This document shows positions 5,391 through 46,746 of a stretch of 64,000 nt of DNA, piece by piece; the stretch's first letter is position 1; the number at the start of each line of letters is the position of its first letter. Source of the DNA: an uncultured Erysipelotrichaceae bacterium (GTDB taxonomy: Bacteria; Bacillota_I; Bacilli_A; RFN20; CAG-826); contig ONAT01000004.1 in NCBI GenBank assembly GCA_900315885.1, forward strand, positions 32,580-96,579. The letters run 5' to 3'. Both the position numbers and the translations under genes were made by a program. The notes beneath the pieces are model-generated. The model did not search any database. It saw nothing but the letters and a program-made list of their open reading frames with translations, and was not told the origin of the DNA.

Positions 5391-5796
5391 AGAAATATGG
5401 CGTTTTATTAAATTTACATTATTTTCAATTTCAGCAGGAGTTATTCAATTTGGTTCTTTTGCACTTTTTAATGAAGTAATTTTCCATGATGGCGAGTTTG
5501 GTTTATCATACTTTTTATCTTTGGTGTTATCAATCTTATGGAATTTTACTTTTAATTTTAAATTCACCTTTAAGGCCGCGACAAATGTGCCAAAGGCTAT
5601 GGCTCTAGCATTCTTGTTCTATGTGTTCTTCACCCCTATTAGTGTCTTTGGTGGCAATTGTTTAACGAAAGAATGTGGATGGAATAATTATCTTGTGGAA
5701 GCAATTATGATGGTATCTAATTTTATTTTAGAATTCTTTTGGTCTAAATATGTCACATATCGAAATAAAATTGATACTAAGCCAACTACAGAATAA
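5380..5796 (+). CDS. GtrA family membrane protein
   Basis: 138 aa, 4 hydrophobic segments. FIKF.LFS..AGVIQ and WNFTFNFKFTFK resemble GtrA-like proteins. An 11-nt overlap with the exporter stop suggests translational coupling. Confidence 0.7.
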   Translation: MKTKEIWRFIKFTLFSISAGVIQFGSFALFNEVIFHDGEFGLSYFLSLVLSILWNFTFNFKFTFKAATNVPKAMALAFLFYVFFTPISVFGGNCLTKECGWNNYLVEAIMMVSNFILEFFWSKYVTYRNKIDTKPTTE

Positions 5797-32752: not shown

Positions 32753-32779
32753 AAGCATCTCAATTGAGGTGCTTTTTTA
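32753..32779 (+). terminator. Rho-independent terminator ending the core block
   Basis: AGCATCTC / GAGGTGCT hairpin (one G-T pair) followed by TTTTTT. Confidence 0.65.
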
Positions 32780-32797
32780 TTGCTCCTTTTGAAAAAA

Positions 32798-32816
32798 TGT
32801 CTTTTCTTAAAAGACA
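32798..32816 (+). repeat. 19-bp palindrome copy 1: TGTCTTTT-CTT-AAAAGACA
   Basis: Perfect 8-3-8 inverted repeat. The right half overlaps a -35-like AAGACA. Confidence 0.9.
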
Positions 32817-32838
32817 AATAGGTTAAACCAGTTATAAT
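32811..32838 (+). promoter_or_regulatory. Candidate promoter AAGACA-16 nt-TATAAT for the HTH gene
   Basis: Perfect -10 TATAAT at 32833-32838. The -35-like hexamer is embedded in palindrome copy 1. Confidence 0.35.
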
Positions 32839-32877
32839 TTAATTACTTATATATGAGGGTAAAGTATTATAAGAAAG

Positions 32878-33135
32878 GTGCTTTTTATTTTAAAGGGACA
32901 ATATAAAGCCAAAATTGTATTGGGAAGTGAAGATGTGCTAGAAAGAGTTTACCAATATTACATAATGCACGATATTGATAAGAGTGATACAAAAGCAATC
33001 GTCTTTGAAAAAGTTTATCTTGTAAAAGAAAGATATTCTATGGACGAAATTGCTATTTTAGCAAACACTTCTGAAAGTACAATAAGGCGTACAATTAGGT
33101 CATTTAGTAGCCTAATAAAGAAGCTAATTAACTAA
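32878..33135 (+). CDS. Small sigma-70 region-4-like helix-turn-helix protein
   Basis: C-terminal ...VYLVKERYSMDEIAILANTSESTIRRTIRSFSSLIKKL fits the region 4.2 HTH pattern. The start is uncertain (GTG 32878 or GTG 32935). Confidence 0.55.
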   Translation: MLFILKGQYKAKIVLGSEDVLERVYQYYIMHDIDKSDTKAIVFEKVYLVKERYSMDEIAILANTSESTIRRTIRSFSSLIKKLIN

Positions 33136-33164
33136 AATGCTTACGCCCTTATATCATAAGTATT

Positions 33165-33198
33165 AAAGAGAGATTTTATCATGAATCTCTCTTTTTTT
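33165..33198 (+). terminator. Rho-independent terminator after the HTH gene
   Basis: AAAGAGAGATT / AATCTCTCTTT hairpin followed by a T-run. Confidence 0.7.
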
Positions 33199-33269
33199 AC
33201 CTAGCAAATGTTGCAAGGAACTTGTCAAAATATGTCGAATTATAATGAAAACAAAGGAGGGTGAAATAA

Positions 33270-33737
33270 GTGAATTTTGATAATTTAAAACCATATGAAT
33301 TCTTTTTTAGTGTTGGTTATGTAACTTTAATAGCGAGTGTATTGACACTTGTAATTACGCAGTTAATAAAAAAGATCTTAACTAAAAAAGGAATTCTATA
33401 TGAAGGTATGGAACAAAGCAAAAGAGATATGTTTTTGTCACGCATTGGACGCATTGTTGCATTATTAAGCTATGTTGCAATTTATCTAATTAACGCATTC
33501 TTAACTAAGCATACTTTGGTGTTAGACAAATCTCTTCTTGCAGGTTTACTGAGTGGAGCATCATTAACTCTTGTTATTGCAAAATCAATTTATACTTCGC
33601 TACATCAATATTTTAAAAAGAAAAATGTTTTTGAGCGACTTGAGTGTTTAGAAAAAGTAATTGATGTTTTAGAAAATGAAGTAAATCAAGATGAAAAAGA
33701 GAAAGTAAATAAATGGCTATTAACTAATAATAAATAG
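33270..33737 (+). CDS. Small 3-TM membrane protein with charged C-terminal tail (holin-like topology)
   Basis: AAGGAGG then GTG 33270. Three hydrophobic segments: FFFSVGYVTLIASVLTLVITQLI, IGRIVALLSYVAIYLINAFL, LLAGLLSGASLTLVIAKSIY. The tail is ...ENEVNQDEKEKVNKW. It ends 9 nt before the Rhs gene. Confidence 0.6.
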   Translation: MNFDNLKPYEFFFSVGYVTLIASVLTLVITQLIKKILTKKGILYEGMEQSKRDMFLSRIGRIVALLSYVAIYLINAFLTKHTLVLDKSLLAGLLSGASLTLVIAKSIYTSLHQYFKKKNVFERLECLEKVIDVLENEVNQDEKEKVNKWLLTNNK

Positions 33738-33746
33738 GAGGACAAC

Positions 33747-36700
33747 ATGAAAAAGATAATAGTAAAAGAAAGTACAAATGAAGTTATAGATTCTTCTATA
33801 AAAGAAGAAAACAAAATCAAAAAAGATGAAAAACAAAAATTTTTTGATATAAAATTTGAAAACAATTTAAAGAATAAAAAAGTTTTTAGTTTAACAAAGG
33901 ACAAACACCAAGTAGATTTATCATTTCTTGGTAGAAAAGGAAAAGAATTAAGTAATGCACAAGGTGTAGAAATTGGTAATCATGTAAAATACACAAATTT
34001 TGAAAAAGGGTTAGATTTATCGTATGACTATCAAGATAATCTTGTTAAGGAAAGTGTAATTATTAATGAAAGAAAAGATAATTATGATTTTAGTTTCTCT
34101 TTAAACATTGGAGAGTTAAAACCAATATATAATTCTGAAACAAGGACATTAGAATTAAAAAATAATGGTAACACAATTTATCGCATTCTTAGCCCATTTA
34201 TGGTCGATAAAAACAATGTAAGAAGTGATGATTGTTCTTATGAAATTGAACAACAAGATAGTAATTTGATGATTAATTTACATTGTGATTCCGATTGGAT
34301 TAATGATGAGAGTCGAGTGTTTCCAGTAGTGGTAGATCCTACAATTGAAGTTGTAGGAGATGTTATACATGTTAAACAATATGTTGATGATAGTATTGAA
34401 GAATCTAGAGGGCTTAAAATTGGGTTAGATAGGTATGGAGTTTATGATTTAGAATTTGTCGTTAACTGCAGTTTGCTTAAAAAGAATATAAATGACTTTA
34501 GTAGAGTTGTTATATCATTGCAGGTTATGTCACATTTAAATGACATGATGTCATCAAATCAAGAGTATCAACTAACTTTTGGTAATAACAAAATATATGC
34601 AATAAGGCATAGCGATATAAAAGATGTCGTTAGATTTGATATTACTGATTTGGTCCTTGAAACATCTACAAACCTTAACTTAAAATTCGGCCCTGTAACA
34701 AGAGATTCTACTATTCAAAAAATAAATGGTAAAGTAATTTATAGATCATTTAAAACCTACTTTTATCCTTTTAGTTATAGTAAAGATGAAAGTAAAAAAT
34801 CAGAACTCATTATTGAATATGATAAGAAAAAGTGTTTTAACAATATAAAAGATTATAATGTTGGTAAATTAAATAGTTTGCTAATCGATATAAGAAATGG
34901 TGATTATAAAATTATTAATGATTTAGACTTTAAGCTTAAGTCGAACACTATTGATTTCGATGTGAAAGCTGTTTATGACAATCAAAATTCAAATAATTAT
35001 TACATGAGTGACTATTGGAAAACCAATTTACATCAAATTTTAGAGAAACCATCTTCTTATCAAAGTGTTTTAGGCGCAACACGAATTACTTATGTTGATG
35101 GCCTAAACAAAAAACATATTCTTATGACAAAATGGTATTATGTAAAAAATAACCAAAAGAACTATGTTCAAAAAAAAGATATATATTTAGATAGCGATGG
35201 AAAGCTCAAATATAATAAAGATGGTCAAGTTTATGAAATTAAAAGCGAAACCACTAATGAAGAAGGTATTACATATGCATCAGGAAATGACATTTCTAAT
35301 TTCAATCAATTAAAGGATTCAACAAAATATCATTACGAGATTAAATGTGGAGTTGGGACAATAAGTGATATCCAAATAATTAATTATACTAGAATTAAAA
35401 TACCAAAATATGTGGAACAAATTGATAGCAATGGAACAGAAGAAGACATTAGATTTGAAAACATAGATATTATAAATGGAAAGTCATTAATTTCCGGAAA
35501 CAATGTCATATTAAAAGGAACACAAGAAGTTGCATTAAAAGCAGACGGAGATGGTCTCTACTTTAAATATCAAGTATATATTGATGATGAAGTTTGCATA
35601 GAAGAACAACGAGTGGATATTAAACCAGATTTAGATAATTATGACGCAAACGATGATATCTATTTAAATGAAGATATCTTAAATATTAATTCACAAATTA
35701 AAAGTATAGAGAACTCTAAAAGACAAGCATATCTATCACTAAATTCTGCGATTACATCAATTCGTAATTTAGATGAACAAATTACATATCAATGGCGACT
35801 TATTGCTAGAACTGGCACTAAAGAATATGATGCTGAATTTAAACGTTTATATGAAGATAATAGTATAGGAATGAAAACTTTAAAAAGTTTTATTACAAAA
35901 TGCAACGATAGTGAAGATTTAAATGGTGCATTTAAATTGGATAGTAATGGCAAATTACAAGTTGTATTAGCGGATAAGGTTAGTGAAACGAAAAATGCAG
36001 GAACTGTATTAAGTGTCATTTCAAATTATTTAACATTATTAGGTAACAAGATTACTTTGCTAAATAAAACTATTGAAAAAGATTACTCCGGTGACTATGA
36101 AAGTTTTCAATTAAAATTATTGAATCGTCAATATAACGATGCAAAAGAACAAATGGAATTAATGATAAATAGTTGCTTTGAATATGATAAACAACTAGAT
36201 TATTTAAAAGGGCAAAAGAATCAATTAGTAAATAGTCAAAAGAAAGAAATAAATGACTTTATTATTGATAAAGATGGCAACACTCTTGGATTTGATGGTT
36301 ACGGACATTTAATTCTTATTCAGGACAGATATGAAAATAAAATAAATATTGAATATGATTATGATGATATTGAGACGGGTAGATTAAGTAGAGTCATAAG
36401 TGATATGAATACTTTAGAATATCATTACAATAAAGTTACTAAATTGTTAGATTATATTGGCGATTCAAGAGGAGTAAATACTAAATTTGTATATATCGGT
36501 GATGAAGAATTGCAATTAAGTTCAATCGCTGGGGCAAAAGAAACCACTACATTTAGTTATGGTAATACTTTCATAATAAAAACGTTATTAAATAGTCTTA
36601 AGTTAATTCATAATGACGATGATACAGTTAGTGTTAAAGAGTATTATTTAAACACAAAAATTGGTGAGAATATAACTTTTGATAGTTCTGTAGACGAAAT

Positions 36701-39700
36701 TAATACAACTGATGATTTATATATTTTTGATACAACAAGTTATTTAAAAACAATTATTAGAGATAAGAAAACAAATAATAGTAATGATTTAAATGAAACG
36801 AAAGAAGATGAAGTATATTACTTTTCATCATCTGGAAAATGTGTTAAGAATGTAACTGATGAATTTGTAAACGTATCTTATTACAATCTTGACTTACTTA
36901 AACAAGAGGCAACTTATAGAAATAACGATGAAGTGATTATAAAGCCATTAACAATATATGGAGAAAGTCATGAATATAGTTTCGATTTGACTAGTAACAA
37001 TAATGAGTTATTAAACAAGATAAAGCAAGCAGACCTTATTGGACTTAAATTAGTTTTAAACACAGGAAATGTTGATAACATAGGTATTCTTGATTTGGCT
37101 TTAAGAGTTGATGTTACTACGAGCACTAATAAAGTTGAAACCTTCAGCGAGTCATTCCAAGAGCTTAAACTCCAAGAAGTTGTGTTACCTATTTTTGTTA
37201 ATACAAGTAATATCAAAAAGTTAGTCATAAATGTTACGAGTAAGTCTAGTGACTTCAATGATAGTTATATAGATGTTCTTGACCTTATTGCCTTAGAAAA
37301 TGGTGCCACTTATAAATACGATAATAAAGATAGGTTGATATATAAACAAGATAAAGAAGCAAAGATAACTTATAGCGATTTCGATGCTCATGACAACCCT
37401 TTACAATCAGTTAGTGTTGATAAGTATGACGCAACAGTGACTACTAAATATGCATACGATGTTGAAAATAGATTGACATACGTTGAAGATTCTTTAGGCA
37501 ATGTTAACGAATATTATTACGATGATAATGGACAATGCATTAAAAAGAGATCGTATAATAAAGAAGATGCTTCTTTAGTGCGTCAAGAAACATATGAATA
37601 TGATGATAAAGGACGTATTAAAGATAAAAAAGGACCAATTAAAAATAAAAATAAGGACTATCCTTTAGAACATATTGAATACTTACCTCATAGTGAAGTA
37701 ACCTCAAAGGTTATAGGATATAATAAACTAGCTACAAATTATACCTATGACTATTTAACTAATGACTTATTGTCAATAAGTGCAAGTGCAGATGGTATTA
37801 GTAATTCAAATTCATTTGGCTATACAAAGGGTTTCTTGACATCTGTTTCAAGTCGTGGAGTTAAGGTTAAGTATGTGTATGATGGAAGAGGCAGAATTGA
37901 GTCTATATATCTTAATGATGATAGTGAAGACAATATTGATGGTGATATTGAAGATGATAAAAAGGCTTTTATAAGTAATGCTTATGTCGACAATTATAAT
38001 AGTAATCCAAGTAGTCTAGAAAACGACTTAAATATTAAATATGGCACATATCAAAAATCCACATATAAAAATGGATTAGAGGAAGGCATCTTTACTAACT
38101 CAAAAGGCCAAGTTTTAAGAGTGGAAACTGAAGAAACGGATAGAACTATTAGAATTGATAATACATATGATTCAAATGGTAATATTACAAATACACAAAG
38201 CACAATAACTGAAGGCGATGTTGTAACAACAGAAGATGTTACTTACACATATGATAGTCATAAAAAATTAACTAAAATGGTTAAAAAGATTGATGATGAA
38301 AGTGTATATGAAATAGAGTATGAATATAACGATAGAGATTTAATGGATGGCGAAACTATAAAACTAGATGGTGAAGACATTGAGACTGGATATGATTATG
38401 ATTTAAAAAGAAGGATAACACATGCTCTTCAAGATAATTACAATTGTGATATTACATATGATGCCCTAGATCGTATTACTCATAAAGAAGTCGGAGAAGG
38501 TAACGTTACGATTTGTCATACGTACTCTTATCTTAAAGAAGAAGATAATAGTTTAGATTTAATCGCTAGTGATATCGTTAAAGTCAAAGTGGTAAATGGT
38601 GATAATACAACTTATCAAATTGAAACTAATAGATATAGTTACGACGAAATGGGAAATATCATAGAAATAGATTGTGATGAAAGTAAAACAAGATATAAAT
38701 ATGATGCCTTAAGTAGATTAGAAAGAGAAGATAATCCATCTTTAAATAAAACTATAGTTTATAAGTATGATGAAAAAGGAAATGTCATTTTGAAAAAGAC
38801 CTATTCATATACATTAGATGATAAACTAGAAGAAACTCCTGTCATAGATGAGTATGTGTATTCATGTTCTAATTGGGGAGATCAATTGATTGATTATAAT
38901 GGTAAAACCTTTAAATATGACAATATGGGAAGACCATTAGTGTATAAAGGCGATACATGTACATGGAGTCAACGAGGTGAATTAAAGAGTGTAAAGAAAG
39001 ACAATCAAGAAGCATTTAAATACTATTATGACGCGAATGGTATACGAAACAAGAAAATAGTGAATGGCGTAGAAACAAAATTCGTAGTAGTGGGAACAAA
39101 GATACTAAAAAGCATCATAAAGGTAGGAAATGAAGAAAGAACAATAAAATACAAATACGTTCTAGATAAATTAGAAGGATTTGTATATACTAAAGATGGA
39201 ATATCAAAAGAGTATAGATACGAACGAAATATATTTGGAGATATTACAAGGCTATATAATAGTGAGGGAAGCATAGAAGCAACATATGTATATGATGCAT
39301 ATGGAAGGGTAAAAGTAATAAACTCAATAGGCGAAGAAGACACTAATATAGAATTCATAGGTAATATAAATCCATTTAGATATCGTGGATATTATTTTGA
39401 TATTGAAACAGGATTGTATTACTTAAATAGTAGATATTATGATCCAGAGTTAGGAAGATTTATAAGTCCAGATACAATGGAATATTTAAGCCCTAACAAT
39501 ATTAATGGATTGAATTTATATTGCTATTGTAATAATAATCCGATTAATAAATACGACTCTACAGGACACTTTGGAATTTGGGCAATTATAGGAATTGTAT
39601 GGGCTGCGATTCTTTTAGGAGGAGGGGCTCAATTGGCATCCAATGCACTTGCTGGTGAAACAGGTAGTGATTTATGGCGAGGAGTTGCTGGTTCAGCATT

Positions 39701-40130
39701 GGGTTCTGGTGTAAATGCATTGGCATTAATTTTGGCTCCATTTACTGGGGGAGCCTCATTAGCATTTGCCGCTGGGTTAGGGGCTGTGGTTCAAACTGGC
39801 GTTGATACACTCGAAACAGTTATTAGAGGCGAAAATGTGAATGGTTTGCAAACAGTTGCTGACCTAGGTATTAATTTTGTTACTACATTTGCTGGTAACT
39901 GGTTGGGGGCAAAATTGGTTCCTACGAACAGTGGTTGGTTTCAAACGAAAAATTTCTTGAGTGTATTTATAAAACCTTATGGACAAAAAATTTTATTACA
40001 AACTGCAATTGGTGCTGGACTATCAGGAACTGTCAATTTTGCAAGAAAATTTGACTGGAGTAGTATTGATTGGAGAAAGTTTGTACCAGCAATACCTGTT
40101 CCAATGATTCCAATTTATCCGTATTTTTAG
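33747..40130 (+). CDS. RHS/YD-repeat polymorphic toxin, 2127 aa, no N-terminal signal peptide
   Basis: AGGAGG RBS. Many YD repeats from about residue 845 onward (YEYDDKGRIKDK, YTYDSHKKL, YKYDALSRLERED, YVYDAYGRV). RHS core end RYYDPELGRFISPD...NLYCYCNNNPINKYDSTGH. Confidence 0.95.
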   Translation: MKKIIVKESTNEVIDSSIKEENKIKKDEKQKFFDIKFENNLKNKKVFSLTKDKHQVDLSFLGRKGKELSNAQGVEIGNHVKYTNFEKGLDLSYDYQDNLVKESVIINERKDNYDFSFSLNIGELKPIYNSETRTLELKNNGNTIYRILSPFMVDKNNVRSDDCSYEIEQQDSNLMINLHCDSDWINDESRVFPVVVDPTIEVVGDVIHVKQYVDDSIEESRGLKIGLDRYGVYDLEFVVNCSLLKKNINDFSRVVISLQVMSHLNDMMSSNQEYQLTFGNNKIYAIRHSDIKDVVRFDITDLVLETSTNLNLKFGPVTRDSTIQKINGKVIYRSFKTYFYPFSYSKDESKKSELIIEYDKKKCFNNIKDYNVGKLNSLLIDIRNGDYKIINDLDFKLKSNTIDFDVKAVYDNQNSNNYYMSDYWKTNLHQILEKPSSYQSVLGATRITYVDGLNKKHILMTKWYYVKNNQKNYVQKKDIYLDSDGKLKYNKDGQVYEIKSETTNEEGITYASGNDISNFNQLKDSTKYHYEIKCGVGTISDIQIINYTRIKIPKYVEQIDSNGTEEDIRFENIDIINGKSLISGNNVILKGTQEVALKADGDGLYFKYQVYIDDEVCIEEQRVDIKPDLDNYDANDDIYLNEDILNINSQIKSIENSKRQAYLSLNSAITSIRNLDEQITYQWRLIARTGTKEYDAEFKRLYEDNSIGMKTLKSFITKCNDSEDLNGAFKLDSNGKLQVVLADKVSETKNAGTVLSVISNYLTLLGNKITLLNKTIEKDYSGDYESFQLKLLNRQYNDAKEQMELMINSCFEYDKQLDYLKGQKNQLVNSQKKEINDFIIDKDGNTLGFDGYGHLILIQDRYENKINIEYDYDDIETGRLSRVISDMNTLEYHYNKVTKLLDYIGDSRGVNTKFVYIGDEELQLSSIAGAKETTTFSYGNTFIIKTLLNSLKLIHNDDDTVSVKEYYLNTKIGENITFDSSVDEINTTDDLYIFDTTSYLKTIIRDKKTNNSNDLNETKEDEVYYFSSSGKCVKNVTDEFVNVSYYNLDLLKQEATYRNNDEVIIKPLTIYGESHEYSFDLTSNNNELLNKIKQADLIGLKLVLNTGNVDNIGILDLALRVDVTTSTNKVETFSESFQELKLQEVVLPIFVNTSNIKKLVINVTSKSSDFNDSYIDVLDLIALENGATYKYDNKDRLIYKQDKEAKITYSDFDAHDNPLQSVSVDKYDATVTTKYAYDVENRLTYVEDSLGNVNEYYYDDNGQCIKKRSYNKEDASLVRQETYEYDDKGRIKDKKGPIKNKNKDYPLEHIEYLPHSEVTSKVIGYNKLATNYTYDYLTNDLLSISASADGISNSNSFGYTKGFLTSVSSRGVKVKYVYDGRGRIESIYLNDDSEDNIDGDIEDDKKAFISNAYVDNYNSNPSSLENDLNIKYGTYQKSTYKNGLEEGIFTNSKGQVLRVETEETDRTIRIDNTYDSNGNITNTQSTITEGDVVTTEDVTYTYDSHKKLTKMVKKIDDESVYEIEYEYNDRDLMDGETIKLDGEDIETGYDYDLKRRITHALQDNYNCDITYDALDRITHKEVGEGNVTICHTYSYLKEEDNSLDLIASDIVKVKVVNGDNTTYQIETNRYSYDEMGNIIEIDCDESKTRYKYDALSRLEREDNPSLNKTIVYKYDEKGNVILKKTYSYTLDDKLEETPVIDEYVYSCSNWGDQLIDYNGKTFKYDNMGRPLVYKGDTCTWSQRGELKSVKKDNQEAFKYYYDANGIRNKKIVNGVETKFVVVGTKILKSIIKVGNEERTIKYKYVLDKLEGFVYTKDGISKEYRYERNIFGDITRLYNSEGSIEATYVYDAYGRVKVINSIGEEDTNIEFIGNINPFRYRGYYFDIETGLYYLNSRYYDPELGRFISPDTMEYLSPNNINGLNLYCYCNNNPINKYDSTGHFGIWAIIGIVWAAILLGGGAQLASNALAGETGSDLWRGVAGSALGSGVNALALILAPFTGGASLAFAAGLGAVVQTGVDTLETVIRGENVNGLQTVADLGINFVTTFAGNWLGAKLVPTNSGWFQTKNFLSVFIKPYGQKILLQTAIGAGLSGTVNFARKFDWSSIDWRKFVPAIPVPMIPIYPYF
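39570..40127 (+). other. Rhs C-terminal toxin domain (186 aa, glycine/alanine-rich, hydrophobic)
   Basis: Starts right after the core-terminating NNPINKYDSTGH motif. Small-xxx-small glycine-zipper-like runs: LLGGGAQLASNALAG, GVAGSALGSGVNALALILAPFTGGASLAFAAGLGAVV, AIGAGLSG. Confidence 0.7.
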
Positions 40131-40140
40131 AGGTGAAAAT

Positions 40141-40528
40141 TATGATTATTAAAGATAAATTAATAAAAGAGTATCCGCTAACTAAAAAAATAGATTGTTC
40201 TTTTGAATGCTTTGAAGTTATGAAAAGAAGGTATGTTATTTTTTATGATGAAAAAATCAATAAAGAAAATATGGAATCTTTATTGGATGTATTTAATGAT
40301 AATTCGAAAAATAGCTTTACAGAAAAAAGAACATTAATTATAGTTGGGCATACGGATGAAAAGTTTAATAAAAAAGATTTATTGTTTTTTAACGGAGTTG
40401 ATACATTTGTTGTTTATTATTTAATAAATGATAACAACAAAGAAATTTACTTTAATGATCAAAGAGTGTTCTGGTTCAGTGTTGATTGGAAAAAAATAAT
40501 TAAAAAATTTAATGAAATATTAAAATAA
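40141..40528 (+). CDS. Candidate cognate immunity protein (129 aa, soluble)
   Basis: GAGGTGA RBS overlaps the Rhs stop, and the ATG is 10 nt after it. This is the canonical immunity position. No family recognised. Confidence 0.6.
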
Positions 40529-40555
40529 ATAGTGAATTTCTTTCACAAGCAAAAC

Positions 40556-40598
40556 TAGGTAAGTTTACTCAATGGGTAAGCTTACCTTTATTTTTTAT
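40556..40598 (+). terminator. Rho-independent terminator after the toxin-immunity pair
   Basis: AGGTAAGTTTAC / GTAAGCTTACCT hairpin followed by TTATTTTTT. Confidence 0.65.
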
Positions 40599-40620
40599 GG
40601 TATGGATTCAAAAATAGTCA

Positions 40621-40818
40621 AATTCACGATTTCTATTTACAAAAATCTTTTAAATATTTCATCTGAATGTTAAAATTAAAATAAAGATAGGGGTGAAATA
40701 ATACACGGGTTAATAATGTAATAACAATATAATGTAAAAAAATTAAAAAAATTCATATAATTATTTTCAAAATATTTATATACAATATTTTAGAAAATAT
40801 ATTAGTTAGCTAATTAGA
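40621..40818 (+). repeat. Direct repeat copy 1 (198 nt), upstream region of the 40844 cassette
   Basis: Aligns with 43444..43631. I count 4 substitutions, one 9-nt tandem duplication (AAAAAAATT) and a 1-nt indel. Confidence 0.9.
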
Positions 40819-40843
40819 CACATCAAAGGTTGGAAATTTAAGA

Positions 40844-41053
40844 ATGAAAAAAAAGACGTTTTATCAAACTAATATTTTTTGGCAGTTATTTTGTTTTGTG
40901 TTTCTTGCAATTTTTATATTGATTTTTATAGTCACTGTGCAATGTATTATTGCAATTATAAAAAATGGATTTGGTAAAACAATTTCCGATATAATGGCCT
41001 CTGTGTTTATATTAGCAGTACTTGTTATTGGTTGTTCATTGGCGTTAATCTAA
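40844..41053 (+). CDS. 2-TM N-terminal half of an interrupted 2TM+PH-like gene
   Basis: 69 aa with two hydrophobic helices. Its TAA at 41051 is in frame with ORF 41105..41449, and no other stop lies between them. Confidence 0.5.
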   Translation: MKKKTFYQTNIFWQLFCFVFLAIFILIFIVTVQCIIAIIKNGFGKTISDIMASVFILAVLVIGCSLALI

Positions 41054-41104
41054 TTCATTATTTTAGAACACAACAATGTTCATTTAACAAAAGACAAAAT
41101 ATAT

Positions 41105-41449
41105 ATGAACAATGATTGGAATCCAAAGAAAGATAAAATACAATATTATACTGAAGCATATTTTGCTGATATTGAATCTATTGATATTATTTGGACAAAA
41201 ATGGATTCTAGAGGTAAATTGATTAGACCTAAGCTTATCTCTGCTTCAGTAGAAAAGCCATATTTATCTATAAAAACTAAAGATGGTAAAATATCTAATT
41301 TCTTTGTCATGTATATTCCGAAGAAAAATGTAATAAAAATAATAAATGAAATTAGTTATCGAATGAAAAGTGTAGGGAACAATATTAAGATTATTAATTC
41401 CGATGAAGCATATTTAAAAATTAAGAAAAAAATTTATATCGATATCTAG
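41105..41449 (+). CDS. Soluble C-terminal half of the interrupted 2TM+PH-like gene
   Basis: Same frame as 40844..41053. No SD precedes ATG 41105. The layout matches the soluble halves of 44667..45080 and 45979..46467. Confidence 0.45.
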   Translation: MNNDWNPKKDKIQYYTEAYFADIESIDIIWTKMDSRGKLIRPKLISASVEKPYLSIKTKDGKISNFFVMYIPKKNVIKIINEISYRMKSVGNNIKIINSDEAYLKIKKKIYIDI

Positions 41450-41503
41450 ATATTAAATTATTAAATAGTCACATGAACTAGCAAGAGTATAACTGTTTCA
41501 AGA

Positions 41504-41522
41504 TGTCTTTTTTTAAAAGACA
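41504..41522 (+). repeat. 19-bp palindrome copy 2: TGTCTTTT-TTT-AAAAGACA
   Basis: Perfect 8-3-8 inverted repeat. Confidence 0.9.
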
Positions 41523-41577
41523 AATTTTTCTAAAATTAAAATAGTAAATTGCGATAACACAATTTATCAATTGAATA

Positions 41578-41862
41578 TTGCTAGATTCAATCAAACAATT
41601 AATCAATTGGCATGGCGGAATTGCCTTACTGATTGCTTTCGGAATAAGTACTGTTTTAGGTGGTGTATATGGAAGCGTATCAGTTGCTGAAAGTATACTT
41701 TATGATATTAATAATCCTTATGGGTTTAGAGACTGTGATTGGGGAGAATTTAAACTACATCCAGATCTAGACTTAGAAGAAAAAATTAATCAATTTGAAA
41801 TATTAGGAGATTATAAAGAAGACTTAAGAAAAAGAAGAGAAAAATGGTATAAAGAAGTATGA
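41578..41862 (+). CDS. Small single-TM protein (94 aa) coupled to the cyclase gene
   Basis: TTG start with no obvious SD. Glycine-rich TM GGIALLIAFGISTVLGGVYGSV. The stop TGA overlaps the GAGGTG RBS of the cyclase, whose ATG is 8 nt downstream. Confidence 0.35.
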   Translation: MLDSIKQLINWHGGIALLIAFGISTVLGGVYGSVSVAESILYDINNPYGFRDCDWGEFKLHPDLDLEEKINQFEILGDYKEDLRKRREKWYKEV

Positions 41863-41870
41863 GGTGATAA

Positions 41871-42620
41871 ATGATGTATGAATATGATTATATAAACGGA
41901 AAAAGAAGAGTAAACGAGATACTAAATGATTCCAATGAAATTGAGGCAAAAGAGAAAGTACCAAAAGAAAATGATTTTACTTTTCATAATGGTTATTTTG
42001 CTTGGGTTACTGCTGTATTTGTTGACATAAGGGATTCAACATCAATTTTCACAGAAAATAAGAAGACTTCAACTTCAAAAATTATAAGAGCATTTACTTC
42101 CGAAGTAATTGGAATTTTAAAGGACGACGATAATTTGCGCGAAATTGGTATTAGAGGAGATTGTGTATATGCTATCTATACTACATCCCAAAAATACGAA
42201 GATTATGAAATTGCGAATAAAGTGTTTTATGTAAATACTTTTATGAAAATGTTAAATAAATTATTGCAAAACAAAAACATGAAAACTATTAAAGTTGGGA
42301 TTGGCGTTTCTACAGCACAAGAACTAGTTGTTAAAGCCGGAAGAGAAAAAACTGGCATTAATAACTTAGTATGGATTGGAAAAGCGGTAACTTATGCTTC
42401 TAAATTTTCTTCTTTAGCAAATTCTAATGATTATAATAACATTATTTTTTCCGACAACTTTTATAATAGTTTTATTGGGGATTTAAAAAATAACAATAAA
42501 AATAAAAATGTTGAATCTTGGTTTAAGCAACATAGAGATAGCAAATTGGGTTATTTTTACGACTGTGACATAATCAAATCAGAATTCAATGATTGGATTG
42601 AAAATGGTATGAAAGGATAA
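41871..42620 (+). CDS. Stand-alone class III nucleotidyl cyclase (Pycsar PycC-like)
   Basis: Cyclase homology-domain motifs in order: AVFVDIRDSTSIF (metal Asp 1), IRGDCVYAIY (metal Asp 2), IKVGIGVSTAQELVVKAG, VWIGKAVTYASKFSSLA. 249 aa with no other domain. Confidence 0.7.
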   Translation: MMYEYDYINGKRRVNEILNDSNEIEAKEKVPKENDFTFHNGYFAWVTAVFVDIRDSTSIFTENKKTSTSKIIRAFTSEVIGILKDDDNLREIGIRGDCVYAIYTTSQKYEDYEIANKVFYVNTFMKMLNKLLQNKNMKTIKVGIGVSTAQELVVKAGREKTGINNLVWIGKAVTYASKFSSLANSNDYNNIIFSDNFYNSFIGDLKNNNKNKNVESWFKQHRDSKLGYFYDCDIIKSEFNDWIENGMKG

Positions 42621-42635
42621 CAAAGGAGAGTTTAG

Positions 42636-43142
42636 ATGAACAAAAATGAAGAAAAATATGAAATTTTATCTGGGATAAGTAATCAAATATCATCTTTTGA
42701 TAATAAAGCGAGCATTTTAATTTCAGCTATAGGAATTGTTTTCGCATTATCTTTATCTTTCTTAGATGTGTTTTGTGAAGATGATTTTTTATCAAAATGT
42801 CAAATTTTTAAAATAATTTACTATGCATTATTTATATTATTTATTATCAATACAATTGTTGTAATAGGTTCATATATATTAGTTATTATTCCTAGGAAGA
42901 AAATTGGAAATAATAAATATGCAAATTATTATAACGACATTGCTGATTTAGATATTTATGGTCATAAGGAATATGATGATTTGTTAGAAGATTATACAAA
43001 AAACGATAATTTACTTACAGAACAAATTATTATTAATTCAAAGATATGTAAAACCAAACATTTATTTTTGAAAGTTGGTATAATATCATTAATACCATTT
43101 TCAATATTGTTATTGGTTCTTATTGTACTGACAATAATTTAA
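42636..43142 (+). CDS. Multi-TM effector (Pycsar PycTM-like)
   Basis: AAGGAG RBS 15 nt after the cyclase stop. N-terminal helix with the SFDNKASILISAIGIV motif as I recall it for Pycsar effector domains. 3-4 hydrophobic segments, 168 aa. Confidence 0.65.
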   Translation: MNKNEEKYEILSGISNQISSFDNKASILISAIGIVFALSLSFLDVFCEDDFLSKCQIFKIIYYALFILFIINTIVVIGSYILVIIPRKKIGNNKYANYYNDIADLDIYGHKEYDDLLEDYTKNDNLLTEQIIINSKICKTKHLFLKVGIISLIPFSILLLVLIVLTII

Positions 43143-43351
43143 TTAACAAATATTAAATACGAGATTCCTGCTTTTTTAATATGTAAACTATGTTTTCTGG
43201 TTTCATCAAGGTGTGATGGCACAAGATGCTGTGGCAGATTGTAATCAGTCTTATCTACTTTACGAAACATGATTGATTTTATAGAAAAAGTTTTAAAAAC
43301 TGAGTTTTTAATACCTTCTTTAGCCTATTAGGTGTAAGGAGGTATTTTTAT

Positions 43352-43465
43352 ATGATGCAAATTGTTTTAAATAAGAATACATATTTTATTAACGAATCAT
43401 TTAATGGGGCAACAAGAACATTAATCAATATTCTTAAGAATAGAATTCACTATTTCTATTTATAA
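43352..43465 (+). CDS. Small ORF (37 aa), possibly a truncated gene remnant
   Basis: Strong AAGGAGG RBS. Its 3' end (KNRIHYFYL*) lies inside direct repeat copy 2. Copy 1 has CAA where this copy has the TAA stop. Confidence 0.3.
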   Translation: MMQIVLNKNTYFINESFNGATRTLINILKNRIHYFYL

Positions 43466-43631
43466 AAATCTTTTAAATATTTCATCTGAATGTTAAAATT
43501 AAAATAAAGATAGGGGTGAAATAATATACGGGTTAATAACGTAATAACAATATAATGTAAAAAAATTCATATAATTATTTTCAAAATATTTATATACAAT
43601 ATTTTAGAAAATATATTAGTTAGTAATTAGA
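43444..43631 (+). repeat. Direct repeat copy 2 (188 nt), upstream region of the 43644 cassette
   Basis: See copy 1. The similarity ends just before the RBS of the downstream gene in both copies. Confidence 0.9.
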
Positions 43632-43643
43632 GGGAGACTATCT

Positions 43644-44246
43644 GTGATTATATTTAAAAGAGAAAAAAATGCATTGTTGAAATTTAAGCAATATATAGAA
43701 GGGGAAATGGATTTTGATACTTTCTGGCAAGAATATATTGCTTGTGGCGATTTAATGAAATATTTATGCAAGTTTGATCAAAGAAGGCGTGAAGAATTTT
43801 TGATTAATAATGATTTCATAAATTATTTTTATAACGGAAAACCTGCTTTTCAGTTAAAAGTTGGCTTACAGGCATCAATAATGGCATATTTGAAGAAAAG
43901 AAAAATTAAATTTGAAAACAAAACAAAAGAATATGTTCTATGGGAAAAATGGAATAGTTATATACCAGATTTTGTTCCTTGTAATGAATCAATGTATTAT
44001 TTTATGGAAAACTTAGACAATGGCGTTAGACACTCAAAAAAATATTATCGTGACTATTTTTCAAAGATTTATCAATACGTAAAATATTATCCGCGATGGT
44101 TGCAAATGTGCGAATGGCCTATGGATGATGATGGAACCCCAACTAAATTCTTGTATCAAACTGGTTTTCCTAATAAACATGATTTTATTGAGTATTGGTT
44201 TCTAAAAAAAGATGGTACAAAAATTAAAATAGAACAATACGATTAA
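43644..44246 (+). CDS. Hypothetical soluble protein (200 aa), immunity-protein-like
   Basis: AGGGAG then GTG 43644. Trp/Tyr-rich. No catalytic motif recognised. Confidence 0.55.
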   Translation: MIIFKREKNALLKFKQYIEGEMDFDTFWQEYIACGDLMKYLCKFDQRRREEFLINNDFINYFYNGKPAFQLKVGLQASIMAYLKKRKIKFENKTKEYVLWEKWNSYIPDFVPCNESMYYFMENLDNGVRHSKKYYRDYFSKIYQYVKYYPRWLQMCEWPMDDDGTPTKFLYQTGFPNKHDFIEYWFLKKDGTKIKIEQYD

Positions 44247-44313
44247 TGAGTGCTCAATGTCGGGGACTACAATTAGTGACTTGGTTTTTTTGAAAATTAA
44301 ATGGCTATTAGTA

Positions 44314-44486
44314 GTGTTTAGATGTGTTACTAAAAACGGATTAAAGGTTGCTGAAGTTGTCAGTAAAGACCAGACTTATGTTAGTCAAGTTGCTAAAGTT
44401 GAAGAATGATTGGACAATATTCTCATATATCTAATGGACTAACTCTAGATGCTTTACTATTTATTACAAAATGGTTTGTATTCTAA
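44314..44486 (+). pseudogene. Decayed XRE-type HTH gene remnant (two frames)
   Basis: 44314..44409 reads ...GLKVAEVVSKDQTYVSQVAKVEE*. Shifted frame 44412..44486 reads GQYSHISNGLTLDALLFITKWFVF*. Together they resemble an HTH_3 fold broken by a frameshift. Confidence 0.3.
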
Positions 44487-44534
44487 AAATATCTATTTTT
44501 TTGATTAATGATTAATTGTTTGGAGGTGCATTAT

Positions 44535-44645
44535 GTGAATTCTAAATTTACTTTAAGATTCTTGGCAGCACTAATTGCTGGTGGAACAGAAACTGCCTAT
44601 GATTTAACATCATATTTAATTGGGAAATTAATTTCAGCTTTTTAG
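44535..44645 (+). CDS. Small ORF (36 aa, VNSKFTLRFLAALIAGGTETAYDLTSYLIGKLISAF)
   Basis: GGAGGTG precedes GTG 44535. It ends 12 nt before the RBS of the next gene. It may be a peptide or an orphan toxin-tail fragment. Confidence 0.25.
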   Translation: MNSKFTLRFLAALIAGGTETAYDLTSYLIGKLISAF

Positions 44646-44666
44646 TCATTAGGAGGATTGATTATT

Positions 44667-45080
44667 TTGAAACAAAAATTTTATAAAAATTTATTTCAAA
44701 CGATGTCATATTTTGCTGTAATAATAATTTTCGAGGTGTTTTTACTTATTGGTTTTTTTGCTAGTTTAAGTTATGGTCAAAATTTTGGTTGGATACTATT
44801 GATAATATCTTTATCTTTAATTGCATTATTCTATCTAATAGGGTTTTATTGGATTTTCCAAATAGTATCTATTGATGAACATGGAATTAAAATATTATTC
44901 AAAAGTAAAATTGTTAAGCAACTTAAATGGGAAGAAATAGATACAATAGAAGAAGCAAATATAATGAGAAATCCAGCACTAAGAATTAAAGCATTTGATG
45001 GAAGTGAAATTCATTTAGATAAAAGAAAACAAATTGTTAAAGCGATAGAAATATATTCGCAAAATAAAATAATAAAATAA
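44667..45080 (+). CDS. 2-TM + PH-like small membrane protein (paralog B)
   Basis: AGGAGG at 44651-44656. TTG 44667 has better spacing than TTG 44658. Two TM helices, then a soluble IVSIDEHGIKILFKSKIVKQLKWEEIDTIE... domain. Confidence 0.6.
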   Translation: MKQKFYKNLFQTMSYFAVIIIFEVFLLIGFFASLSYGQNFGWILLIISLSLIALFYLIGFYWIFQIVSIDEHGIKILFKSKIVKQLKWEEIDTIEEANIMRNPALRIKAFDGSEIHLDKRKQIVKAIEIYSQNKIIK

Positions 45081-45172
45081 TTTTATTTAACGCACTGTAA
45101 AAACAGATATTATTAGATTAGTAGGAGACATTGCAAGTTCAATATTCAATAATTTTTAGGAGGACATAAACT

Positions 45173-45358
45173 ATGTGGGAATTTATTAAATATTGTCTAT
45201 ATTGTTTATTAATGTCAATCTCTGCTGCTTTTGGAAACAATCCTGAGGGAATGACATTCAAACACGCAATAGTTGGAAGTATTACAATGTTTGTATTATT
45301 AGGATTAGCTTTGGGCATTCTTTGGTTAATTGCAAGGGTTGTTAATAAATCTAGATAA
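45173..45358 (+). CDS. Small 2-TM membrane protein (61 aa)
   Basis: TAGGAGGA RBS 7 nt upstream. Two hydrophobic segments. Confidence 0.5.
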   Translation: MWEFIKYCLYCLLMSISAAFGNNPEGMTFKHAIVGSITMFVLLGLALGILWLIARVVNKSR

Positions 45359-45396
45359 AATGTAACTTACAAGGTTTATATAGGAGATTAGTTTTA

Positions 45397-45702
45397 ATGG
45401 AAAAACAAAAAAAGAAAAAAACATTAAAATATACAAAATGTTTTAAAGTATATGAAAAAGAATTAACATGGGATTTATTTATTAAATATTTAAATGATAA
45501 TATGGAATTTTGCTTTTATTTGAATGATATAACAATTGATATTGCTTTTCATTATAAGGACAAAATAAAAGTATATGAATTAAATATTTCTTCAGGTGAA
45601 AATAGAACTAATTTAAATTTTAATTCAATAGATGAACTTATTTCTTTTAAAGCTTTTAACAATAAATCACTTTATGATATTTGGGACGAATTAGAGAATT
45701 AA
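45397..45702 (+). CDS. Hypothetical small soluble protein (101 aa)
   Basis: TAGGAGA RBS. Followed by a terminator. No family recognised. Confidence 0.5.
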   Translation: MEKQKKKKTLKYTKCFKVYEKELTWDLFIKYLNDNMEFCFYLNDITIDIAFHYKDKIKVYELNISSGENRTNLNFNSIDELISFKAFNNKSLYDIWDELEN

Positions 45703-45727
45703 TTAATAAATTAACATCTCATTAGTT

Positions 45728-45769
45728 AGATGCATTTGCTACATTAAAGTAGTAGATGCATCTTTTTTT
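45728..45769 (+). terminator. Rho-independent terminator
   Basis: AGATGCAT...ATGCATCT outer stem plus CTAC/GTAG inner stem, followed by TTTTTTT. Confidence 0.6.
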
Positions 45770-45865
45770 GTGTGTAAAGAAATTTTAATAATATTTTTAA
45801 AATTGACCCTCACATTTGTTATTTTAAATGCCCAGTACTATTGAAGGGGGACTCAATTGTTTAAA

Positions 45866-45884
45866 TGTCTTTTCAGAAAAGACA
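45866..45884 (+). repeat. 19-bp palindrome copy 3: TGTCTTTT-CAG-AAAAGACA
   Basis: Perfect 8-3-8 inverted repeat. Confidence 0.9.
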
Positions 45885-45978
45885 AATTAAATCTGTTTTT
45901 TTGATAGATTTCAAATGTTGATTAGCAAAAAATAAAAGCAACTTTTTATAATTGTGATATGATTAAGAAAAAGGAGCT

Positions 45979-46467
45979 ATGGTTTTTGTGAAAAAGATTT
46001 ATTCAAATAAGTCCGTTATTTACTTTTCAATCTTTGGGATTGTTTTTATATCAATAATAATGATTTTGAGTATTATTTCCTTAATGTCTAATGTGGAAGA
46101 AACTACAAATAATATTCTTATGATTATTGTGTTGATATTAATATATTTATTCTTTTTAGTGTTGTTTGTTTTTTCGTTAAATAAATTTGGATATAAAGTA
46201 ATATATGATAGTAATAAAAAAGTTATTTCTAAAAAAGGATTTATCTTTGGACACGAATACCAAATAAAGCTAGAAGATATAAAAGAAGTGGCGGTGTTAT
46301 CACTACCAAAAGAAACAGCTTATTATGTTTTAACTGATTCAAAAGATGATAAACAAGAATCATTTATTAAAATTAAGAAAACAAAAAAGAATGAGGCTTT
46401 TGTAAAACAATTTTGGGATAAAGCAATTAAGGAATACGAAGATTACGAAGAATTGTTTAATAAATAA
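45979..46467 (+). CDS. 2-TM + PH-like small membrane protein (paralog C)
   Basis: AAGGAG RBS. Two TM helices, then YKVIYDSNKKVISKKGFIFGHEYQIKLEDIKEVAV... and a C-terminal helix. Confidence 0.6.
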   Translation: MVFVKKIYSNKSVIYFSIFGIVFISIIMILSIISLMSNVEETTNNILMIIVLILIYLFFLVLFVFSLNKFGYKVIYDSNKKVISKKGFIFGHEYQIKLEDIKEVAVLSLPKETAYYVLTDSKDDKQESFIKIKKTKKNEAFVKQFWDKAIKEYEDYEELFNK

Positions 46468-46509
46468 TTTTAGATATAGTTTTAAATATTGGAAGATTAT
46501 TTATGTTTT

Positions 46510-46537
46510 TTAAGTATATTTAATACTCTGTTATAAT
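46510..46537 (+). promoter_or_regulatory. Candidate promoter TTAAGT-16 nt-TGTTATAAT (extended -10)
   Basis: TGnTATAAT at 46529-46537. Palindrome copy 4 starts 8 nt downstream, so it would cover the transcription start. Confidence 0.4.
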
Positions 46538-46544
46538 CACTAAT

Positions 46545-46563
46545 TGTCATTTTAGAAAAGACA
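46545..46563 (+). repeat. 19-bp palindrome copy 4: TGTCATTT-TAG-AAAAGACA (one mismatch)
   Basis: 8-3-8 inverted repeat with one mismatch. Confidence 0.85.
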
Positions 46564-46589
46564 AAACTAGTTTGCTTTAGAGTGCAAAA

Positions 46590-46608
46590 TGTCTTTTTGG
46601 AAAAGACA
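46590..46608 (+). repeat. 19-bp palindrome copy 5: TGTCTTTT-TGG-AAAAGACA, extendable to 12-3-12 and followed by a T-run
   Basis: AAAATGTCTTTT-TGG-AAAAGACATTTT then TTTGTTTTT. It has intrinsic-terminator geometry. Confidence 0.9.
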
Positions 46609-46643
46609 TTTTTTTGTTTTTGACATGTGTGCAAGTTGAGAAT

Positions 46644-46662
46644 TGTCTTTTGATAAAAGACA
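46644..46662 (+). repeat. 19-bp palindrome copy 6: TGTCTTTT-GAT-AAAAGACA
   Basis: Perfect 8-3-8 inverted repeat. Confidence 0.9.
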
Positions 46663-46746
46663 AAAGTAAATAGTCTGTAGCCATTACTTCATAATTAATC
46701 GTATAAATAGTATGCATATTACGTATAAATTATTAGAGGAACGAGT

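Follow-up and report, generated by a model that had tools for sequence, protein, structure and literature searches.

What occupies the chromosomal interval between an M29 aminopeptidase gene and a P-type ATPase gene in an uncultured Erysipelotrichaceae bacterium, and how was it put together? This question was addressed in a window of 64,000 nucleotides (G000:C38:32580-96579, the whole stretch of DNA analysed here) from a metagenome-assembled genome (MAG) of 1.32 Mb, 39 contigs and ~31% G+C. A sequence-only reading of the window had described the interval as an island of short, mostly unrecognisable open reading frames (ORFs). We find that the small genes are real but that the block is not a faceless island: it is very probably a chromosomal Rhs polymorphic-toxin locus, with a degenerate array of orphan toxin/immunity modules and captured anti-phage cargo. 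Positions below are those of the window, and features lie on the plus strand unless otherwise stated.

The interval measures 14,005 bases from the end of the M29 gene (32741) to the start of the ATPase gene (46747). Genes for a cation diffusion facilitator (CDF) transporter, SecG, RNase R and the M29 peptidase form its left flank, and genes for the E1-E2 P-type ATPase, MatE and an ABC importer its right flank. The M29 peptidase shares ~75% amino-acid identity with its closest public relatives, found in Erysipelotrichales and "Mollicutes" gut MAGs, and its gene is followed by an intrinsic terminator (32753-32779; 9-bp stem with 4 GC pairs and T-run at 32753-32774) that marks the left border. 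The sequence-only reading had placed a switch in gene content just after this terminator, and housekeeping flanks on both sides of a low-GC block bear this out. It had proposed to compare base composition with the flanks; compared here with the whole genome, the G+C content of 26.85% is the lowest among 445 overlapping 14-kb genome windows (mean 31.1%, sd 1.8), and the tetranucleotide distance falls in the top 5.8%. The long AT-rich spacers it had listed (128-501 nt, 20-25% G+C) make up 17% of the interval. An Rfam scan of the island gave no match at E <= 0.1. Because an ORF of 2127 codons is open under translation table 11, that table applies, and genetic code 4 was rejected for the window.

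The protein of 2127 aa encoded by this ORF (33747-40130) is the giant Rhs toxin that had been suspected. It matches PF05593 (7e-10) and TIGR01643, and a match to PF25023 (TEN_YD-shell), precomputed on an identical protein, likewise identifies a YD-repeat shell. The Rhs-associated core domain TIGR03696 lies at residues 1849-1941, with 80 bits against a cut-off of 32.5. Together, the N-terminal region, the YD-repeat shell and the Rhs-associated core occupy 33747-39569 and terminate in NNPINKYDSTGH (residues 1930-1941), a variant of the PxxxxDPxGL type of Rhs cleavage motif with DSTGH at residue 1937. The remainder of the gene (39570-40130) encodes a strain-specific C-terminal toxin domain (CT) of 186 aa, here called CT-A, which is glycine/alanine-rich and hydrophobic. 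It is followed by the gene for a soluble 128-aa protein (40142-40528, with a terminator at 40557-40587).

Comparison of strains provided the most direct evidence for how the locus is built. Conspecific contigs carrying an identical M29 protein were found and walked by exact-protein look-ups, which yielded six alleles with flanks of 97.1-99.6% DNA identity. Allele A, represented by the window and by independent assemblies identical to it over 36747-49314, carries CT-A with the 128-aa gene, followed by a relic array that includes a Pycsar operon. In allele B (L098), CT-B is paired with a 96-aa gene and followed by two intact orphan modules and zero defence genes. Allele C (L099) has CT-C with a 193-aa gene, a TNT-domain orphan, a 189-aa relic of a DUF4368 serine recombinase and a 334-aa YhcG nuclease. 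The other three carry CT-D with a 167-aa gene: allele D (L101) continues with CT-C as an orphan and thereafter matches allele C; allele E (L102) continues with CT-A and the 128-aa gene as an orphan and then has the exact array of the window, Pycsar included; and allele F (L104), whose contig begins within the 3' end of the Rhs gene, is a further mosaic. Thus at least four different CTs are found on the main Rhs gene, and the toxins across alleles comprise CT-A to CT-D, the TNT-domain orphan and others.

The variation is sharply delimited. The segment 32742-39545 is common to all alleles at 88-98% identity, and homology between alleles is lost at 39545-39578, which is the Rhs cleavage motif; the right end (45746-46846) is again common to all. 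The left part (32.8-39.5 kb), comprising a small helix-turn-helix (HTH) gene, a gene for a 155-aa multi-transmembrane protein (TM155) and the Rhs shell, is fixed in every conspecific strain examined. A patch of ~440 nt in the N-terminal part of the Rhs gene (34363-34801), non-homologous between allele groups in a core otherwise 88-98% identical, adds another polymorphic region to that at the toxin tip. Over 39154-46846, allele E is 99.8% identical to the window, the sole difference being one extra CT-D/immunity module upstream; displacement of a toxin module is here caught directly. All full orphans share one starting base, which corresponds to 39154, and are preceded by an 80-nt leader that is conserved and contains a terminator-like hairpin. 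Intact orphans are present in alleles B-F, so that an orphan array is found at this locus; the window itself keeps relics only (41581-41695 and 44327-44645). CT-A and the 128-aa gene are inherited together as one unit in allele E (99.8% nucleotide identity), and this co-inheritance, like the position of the gene, fits the 128-aa protein as the candidate cognate immunity protein of CT-A.

The anti-phage cargo of the window is the cyclase/transmembrane pair of the sequence-only reading, which a PADLOC run of the kind it had proposed resolved as PycC and PycTM. PycC (41871-42620, 249 aa; PDLC02368, 1.3e-86) is a class III nucleotide cyclase by its PF00211 match (29.5 bits against a cut-off of 21.9), and its nearest solved structures, PDB 8JSZ (2.4e-10) and 7R65 (2.9e-9), are a uridylate cyclase and a PycC. 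The transmembrane effector PycTM (42636-43142, 168 aa; PDLC02364, 3.8e-19) starts 15 nt past PycC and matches PF18967 at threshold (27.3 bits against 27.2). Both ORFs are intact. Ratios of nonsynonymous to synonymous substitution (dN/dS) of 0.09-0.26 for PycC and 0.11-0.14 for PycTM denote purifying selection, and show only that the Pycsar genes are maintained. A cyclic GMP-making offshoot of the family, "Pucsar", has been described (bioRxiv 10.64898/2026.08.12.744502).

Two relatives of this operon allowed its borders to be defined. One, with a PycC 87% identical, belongs to an element that also encodes a large serine recombinase of 502 aa, AbiEii and a MobL relaxase; the other, with a PycC 96% identical, lies beside a DpnII restriction-modification system and a DUF2971 gene. 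Both have a 175-aa winged helix-turn-helix (wHTH) gene (HTH_11) directly 5' of PycC, and DNA homology of the window to both is confined to 41696-43142, ending at the PycTM stop codon. The 175-aa wHTH genes (HTH_11/MarR-like) occur at L105:7472-7999 and L109:~5110-5638, in unrelated contexts, and may encode a dedicated Pycsar regulator that has been lost in the window. What precedes PycC there is an ORF of 94 codons (41578-41862), in which 41581-41695 (115 nt) is a relic of an Rhs CT, matching its first transmembrane helix, and 41696-41862 corresponds to the final ~55 codons of the wHTH gene. Because the wHTH remnant is fused in frame to the CT-helix relic, this small gene is a junction chimera and not a third Pycsar component.

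The block is joined on the left to a leader at ~41577 and on the right at the PycTM stop codon (43142); since neither join lies in a repeat, the capture was illegitimate. The leader (41491-41580, 90 nt), identified by allele comparison and containing a 19-bp palindrome, stands 5' of an orphan Rhs tip in alleles B, C and D and 5' of the Pycsar block in the window and allele E. Other alleles carry different cargo: the YhcG/DUF1016 PDDEXK nuclease of allele C matches the PADLOC candidate system PDC-S02 (1e-141). In alleles C, D and F this nuclease lies beside the DUF4368 recombinase relic (L099:11340-12935), in the slot region of the window's Pycsar.

The rest of the array consists of small genes and relics, among them the nonsense- and frameshift-broken genes that had been noted before. 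At 40844-41449, the ORFs 40844-41053 and 41105-41449 are halves of one gene, because allele B has a sense codon (E) in place of the TAA stop of the window and reads through into the second ORF. The product has two transmembrane segments and a soluble domain, an immunity-type architecture. A gene for a 200-aa protein follows at 43644-44246. Its 61%-identical homologue in other organisms lies 7 nt 3' of a gene for a 1410-aa Rhs protein and also ends small-gene arrays, and we therefore classify it as an orphan immunity-type gene. Comparison with the toxin ends of other strains' Rhs proteins identified 44327-44548 as a frameshifted relic of the last 70 codons of CT-C, and allele comparison identified 44572-44645 as the tail of a short orphan CT that is intact in allele C. 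Three genes common to alleles C, D and E come next, encoding a two-transmembrane (2TM) plus soluble-domain protein (44658-45080, 140 aa), a single-transmembrane protein (45173-45358, 61 aa) and a soluble protein (45397-45702, 101 aa; terminator at 45728-45763). The last gene (45979-46467), again of the 2TM plus soluble-domain type, is kept in all alleles, and a 47.5%-identical paralogue lies behind another Rhs orphan on contig C32 of the same genome. Proteins of this type also immediately follow CT domains in alleles B and D.

Between the M29 and Rhs genes lie two further genes of the fixed left part. TM155 (33270-33737) is a member of a narrow family (67 clusters). Two unrelated contexts were examined, and in each a homologue lies immediately 5' of a gene for an Rhs protein of 2000-2100 aa; TM155 is therefore regarded as a partner of Rhs, and is a candidate export or accessory factor. 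Its identity as a holin was rejected, with zero Pfam or PHROG holin matches. Another locus with such a transmembrane partner and Rhs gene (L114:5298-8884, in an organism of 24% G+C) has a resolvase, an ECF-like sigma factor (Sigma70_r2), a 199-aa protein and an S8 peptidase upstream, which may point to regulatory and processing genes dedicated to this class of Rhs. The small HTH gene (32878-33135, 85 codons as listed, with its own terminator at 33165-33194) varies by at most two residues (>=98% identity) across all conspecific alleles. Its real start may be an in-frame ATG at ~32932, which has a ribosome-binding-site-like GGGAAGTGAAG upstream as read by eye. That it is a truncated copy of the sigma factor found beside another Rhs locus was rejected, the similarity being insignificant.

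The same site was then compared across the genus. Six congeneric species have the same gene order (CDF, SecG, RNase R, M29, gap, ATPase, MatE). The gap spans 1.6-4.4 kb and its genes differ from species to species; they encode small transmembrane proteins, a secreted nuclease-like protein (930 aa), a protease-like protein (557 aa) and a protein of 361 aa. The sole item in common with the window is a broken Rhs relic in one species (L084, G006:C3), a stop-broken C-terminal remnant whose toxin is 53% identical to CT-A; Rhs has therefore been present at this site for a long time. The gene next to this relic encodes a 106-aa transmembrane protein, not a soluble one. Alignment to relatives, the test that the sequence-only reading had set for itself, thus revealed six alleles among conspecific strains and, across the genus, six different contents, as expected of a variable defence or conflict hotspot between conserved core genes. 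The proposal of a conflict hotspot built cassette by cassette is supported in this sense, but in place of a loose hotspot there is a single Rhs locus, of which the left 6.8 kb are fixed in the species. Its cassettes can now be specified as displaced Rhs CT/immunity modules exchanged via the core tip, with occasional illegitimate capture of defence genes that come from mobile elements.

Several observations weigh against the interpretation as an Rhs toxin locus with captured cargo, or limit it. At the Rhs N-terminus, neither a secretion signal nor a trafficking domain (PAAR, LXG or other) was detected; residues 1-1400 have zero Pfam matches and no N-terminal hydrophobic segment. CT-A matched neither a toxin family in Pfam nor a solved structure in the PDB. 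The candidate immunity protein is soluble, yet CT-A looks membrane-active. The 2TM plus soluble-domain proteins were rejected as a sequence family, since BLAST finds zero similarity among them and the architecture alone is common. Finally, the low G+C content and the recombinase relic in other alleles show a contribution from mobile elements.

The comparison of alleles shows how the locus changes. An incoming module, consisting of core tip, CT and immunity gene, recombines via the conserved 393-nt core tip, and the previous CT/immunity pair is pushed downstream, as exemplified by allele E. The array later decays by deletions, nonsense mutations and frameshifts and gains foreign genes by illegitimate joins. 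In the window, the captured cargo is a Pycsar operon that is fused to a toxin relic and whose upstream wHTH gene lacks its 5' two-thirds; other strains have the PDC-S02 (YhcG) nuclease with a serine-recombinase relic, and one allele is without cargo. As for function, which we propose, the Rhs protein would kill competitors by its membrane-acting CT, and the 128-aa protein and the 2TM proteins would confer immunity. Upon phage infection PycC would make a cyclic nucleotide, which would activate PycTM and lead to abortive infection. Pycsar may now be transcribed from the palindrome-bearing leader of an orphan cassette.

The locus belongs to a known kind, namely Rhs loci with orphan arrays and defence-gene hotspots. 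Rhs/YD-repeat toxin loci (rhs of Salmonella, Serratia and E. coli; WapA of Bacillus subtilis) have been reviewed (PMC4436062), and orphan Rhs CT-immunity modules have been covered as well (PMC7043789, PMC10539506). Similar to these loci, the present one has a YD shell, an Rhs-associated core that ends in a cleavage motif, and then a hypervariable CT with an immunity gene immediately after it; displaced orphans keep a core tip usable for recombination, and strain polymorphism is strong. In contrast to them, it resides in a small-genome, Erysipelotrichales-like gut host without a type VI secretion context, and has no recognisable signal peptide, PAAR or LXG. A dedicated multi-transmembrane partner lies upstream in place of VgrG or EagR-type adaptors, the cleavage motif is DSTGH as opposed to DPxGL, and the array consists mostly of relics and holds anti-phage genes. 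Particular to this locus, then, are the host lineage, the absent trafficking domain combined with a dedicated transmembrane partner, and the alternative defence cargo in the array. The Pycsar operon resembles known ones (structures 7R65 and 8JSZ; PMC11224242) in its two genes, a minimal class III cyclase and a multi-transmembrane effector, both strongly matched in PADLOC and under purifying selection, and differs from its two nearest relatives in having lost the preceding wHTH gene and in standing behind a toxin-cassette leader in an Rhs array. As in defence islands and hotspots, one slot between core genes has alternative occupants (Pycsar, PDC-S02 or none), and as in mixed offence/defence islands, antibacterial toxins are co-located with anti-phage genes. 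Unlike defence islands, however, the slot is not bounded by an integrase or tRNA, its scaffold is an Rhs orphan array, and its joins are illegitimate rather than site-specific. The locus shows the construction of a conflict locus at base-pair resolution in a poorly studied, uncultured gut lineage, and its alleles form a natural set for addressing toxin/immunity specificity and whether a regulator-less Pycsar still works.

Could the interval instead be a decayed integrative mobile element, either an integrative and mobilizable element or a prophage remnant, that was inserted as one unit and has since lost its integrase? Of the marks of an integrative island, the deviating composition described above is present, and the same 19-bp palindrome stands at both borders. 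The C-terminal relic of a DUF4368 serine recombinase in alleles C, D and F, as well as the recombinase/MobL element that carries the closest Pycsar relative, also speak for mobility. However, no match to PF00589 (tyrosine integrase) or PF00239 (resolvase) was found on the whole 100-kb contig C38, recombinases from related loci used as queries found nothing in the window, and neither a tRNA (searched over the 64-kb window) nor an att-like direct-repeat duplication is present in the window. The locus is old, as the left 6.8 kb are invariably present in the conspecific contigs that were read and an Rhs relic survives at the site in a congener. Moreover, the variation maps to the Rhs cleavage motif and the orphan tips and not to the ends of the island, and the recombinase relic is only 26% identical to the recombinase of the Pycsar-bearing element. 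Insertion as one unit is therefore improbable; mobile elements account for single pieces of cargo, not for the whole island. The earlier statements that an integrase and a tRNA are absent, and that this is no classic mobile island, hold. The statement of the sequence-only reading that no direct repeat flanks the island is right as to att-like duplications and not as to the palindrome, a self-complementary 19-mer that is the only element common to both borders and also occurs inside the island.

This palindrome (TGTCTTTTNNNAAAAGACA) raises a second possibility, a site-specific cassette system in which the 19-bp palindromes would be attC-like recombination sites served by a recombinase encoded elsewhere. 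Six intergenic copies occur in the window against 0.15 expected, all inside the island, starting at 32798, 41504, 45866, 46545, 46590 and 46644. They precede four transcription units. The right arm of copy 1 (32798-32816) overlaps the best promoter-like site of the region (AAGACA-16-TATAAT); copy 2 (41504-41522) lies within the leader 41491-41580, copy 3 (45866-45884) 5' of the last 2TM plus soluble-domain gene, and copies 4-6 (46545-46662) in the upstream region of the ATPase gene, at the right border of the island. It is in keeping with recombination sites that all six copies are at island borders or module boundaries, that the arms are conserved and the loops variable among strains, that the 90-nt segment with copy 2 heads different cargo in different alleles, and that the motif, with 11 copies in its own genome and 0-3 in relatives, is about 4-10 times rarer in congeners. 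The breakpoints, however, fall outside the palindrome: the join near copy 2 is ~55 nt downstream of it, and the Pycsar block is joined inside an ORF at 41696 and at a stop codon at 43142. Most exchanges are accounted for by Rhs-tip homology, and the domain search of contig C38 revealed no linked recombinase. The motif was absent from the other TM155-Rhs and Pycsar loci examined, and nothing shared beyond 19 bp was found among its copies. The motif is explained no less well as an operator for the HTH protein of the island or as a weak hairpin (-4.5 to -9.5 kcal/mol). Like integron arrays and clusters of attC sites lacking integron-integrases (CALINs), the locus has small, mostly promoterless cassettes with short palindromic elements between them and no nearby integrase; in contrast to these, its 19-bp palindromes do not resemble attC sites (no attC model was run), its breakpoints lie elsewhere, and IntI is absent. 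A cassette system is thus very improbable, and a mis-assembly or binning artefact is hardly credible at all, since, although the MAG is in 39 contigs, several of them broken by Rhs repeats, the same 12.6 kb (36747-49314) are identical in independent assemblies, the left part is 98.6% identical in another assembly, and the right 7.7 kb recur in allele E at 99.8% identity.

Rather than a recombination site, we favour the palindrome as a putative operator, possibly of the HTH protein of the island. As the operator of a conserved regulon it was rejected: it is rare in congeners, where its copies are unlinked to homologues of the island genes, two copies in its own genome (C9 and C27) are within ORFs, the motif is limited to 19 bp, and the other TM155-Rhs and Pycsar loci do not have it. 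A broader idea, which we consider tentative and rather unlikely, is that Rhs orphan arrays in small-genome gut Firmicutes are landing pads for anti-phage systems, which lose their own regulators and are driven by reusable cassette leaders. The species-specific palindrome that marks these leaders would be the operator of the small HTH protein of the island, and toxin, immunity and phage defence would be co-regulated as a single conflict regulon.

The duplicated intergenic DNA of the sequence-only reading corresponds to two copies of an element of ~190 bp (R-element) at 40621-40818 and 43444-43631, which are 93% identical to each other. Six further copies are present in the genome, each adjoining an Rhs orphan tip or a second full Rhs operon on contig C20. 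The core of the element aligns to a promoter-like region, a strong ribosome-binding site (AGGGGTGA) and the initial codons of the 304-aa gene at the head of the C20 operon, and the start codon is mutated in the copies outside that operon head. The R-element is recycled Rhs-operon-head DNA, reused as upstream DNA of cassettes, and not a new element. Two over-readings are thereby corrected: the gene before PycC is a chimera, and the repeat is a relic of an Rhs-operon promoter. The 300-nt spacer 43143-43443, between PycTM and the second copy, contains a 43-codon ORF on the minus strand, and a 64-nt piece of it (43229-43292) reappears in allele B just 5' of the conserved right end.

Elsewhere in the genome, the second full Rhs gene (C20:1876-8617, minus strand) encodes 1944 aa, and the 304-aa protein encoded at its head carries a nucleotidyltransferase-like motif near its C-terminus. 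Orphan Rhs tips, at least six in number and each starting MHIMYKGYYYDEE, were found at the ends of contigs C13, C14, C26, C32 and C39. Because such tips lie mostly at contig ends, next to R-element copies, Rhs repeats evidently fragment this assembly. Three intergenic copies of the palindrome occur at C19:33258-34868, between tandem paralogous lipoprotein genes, and this cluster adjoins an XRE regulator and the operon of an 848-aa UvrD-like helicase, possibly another defence locus.

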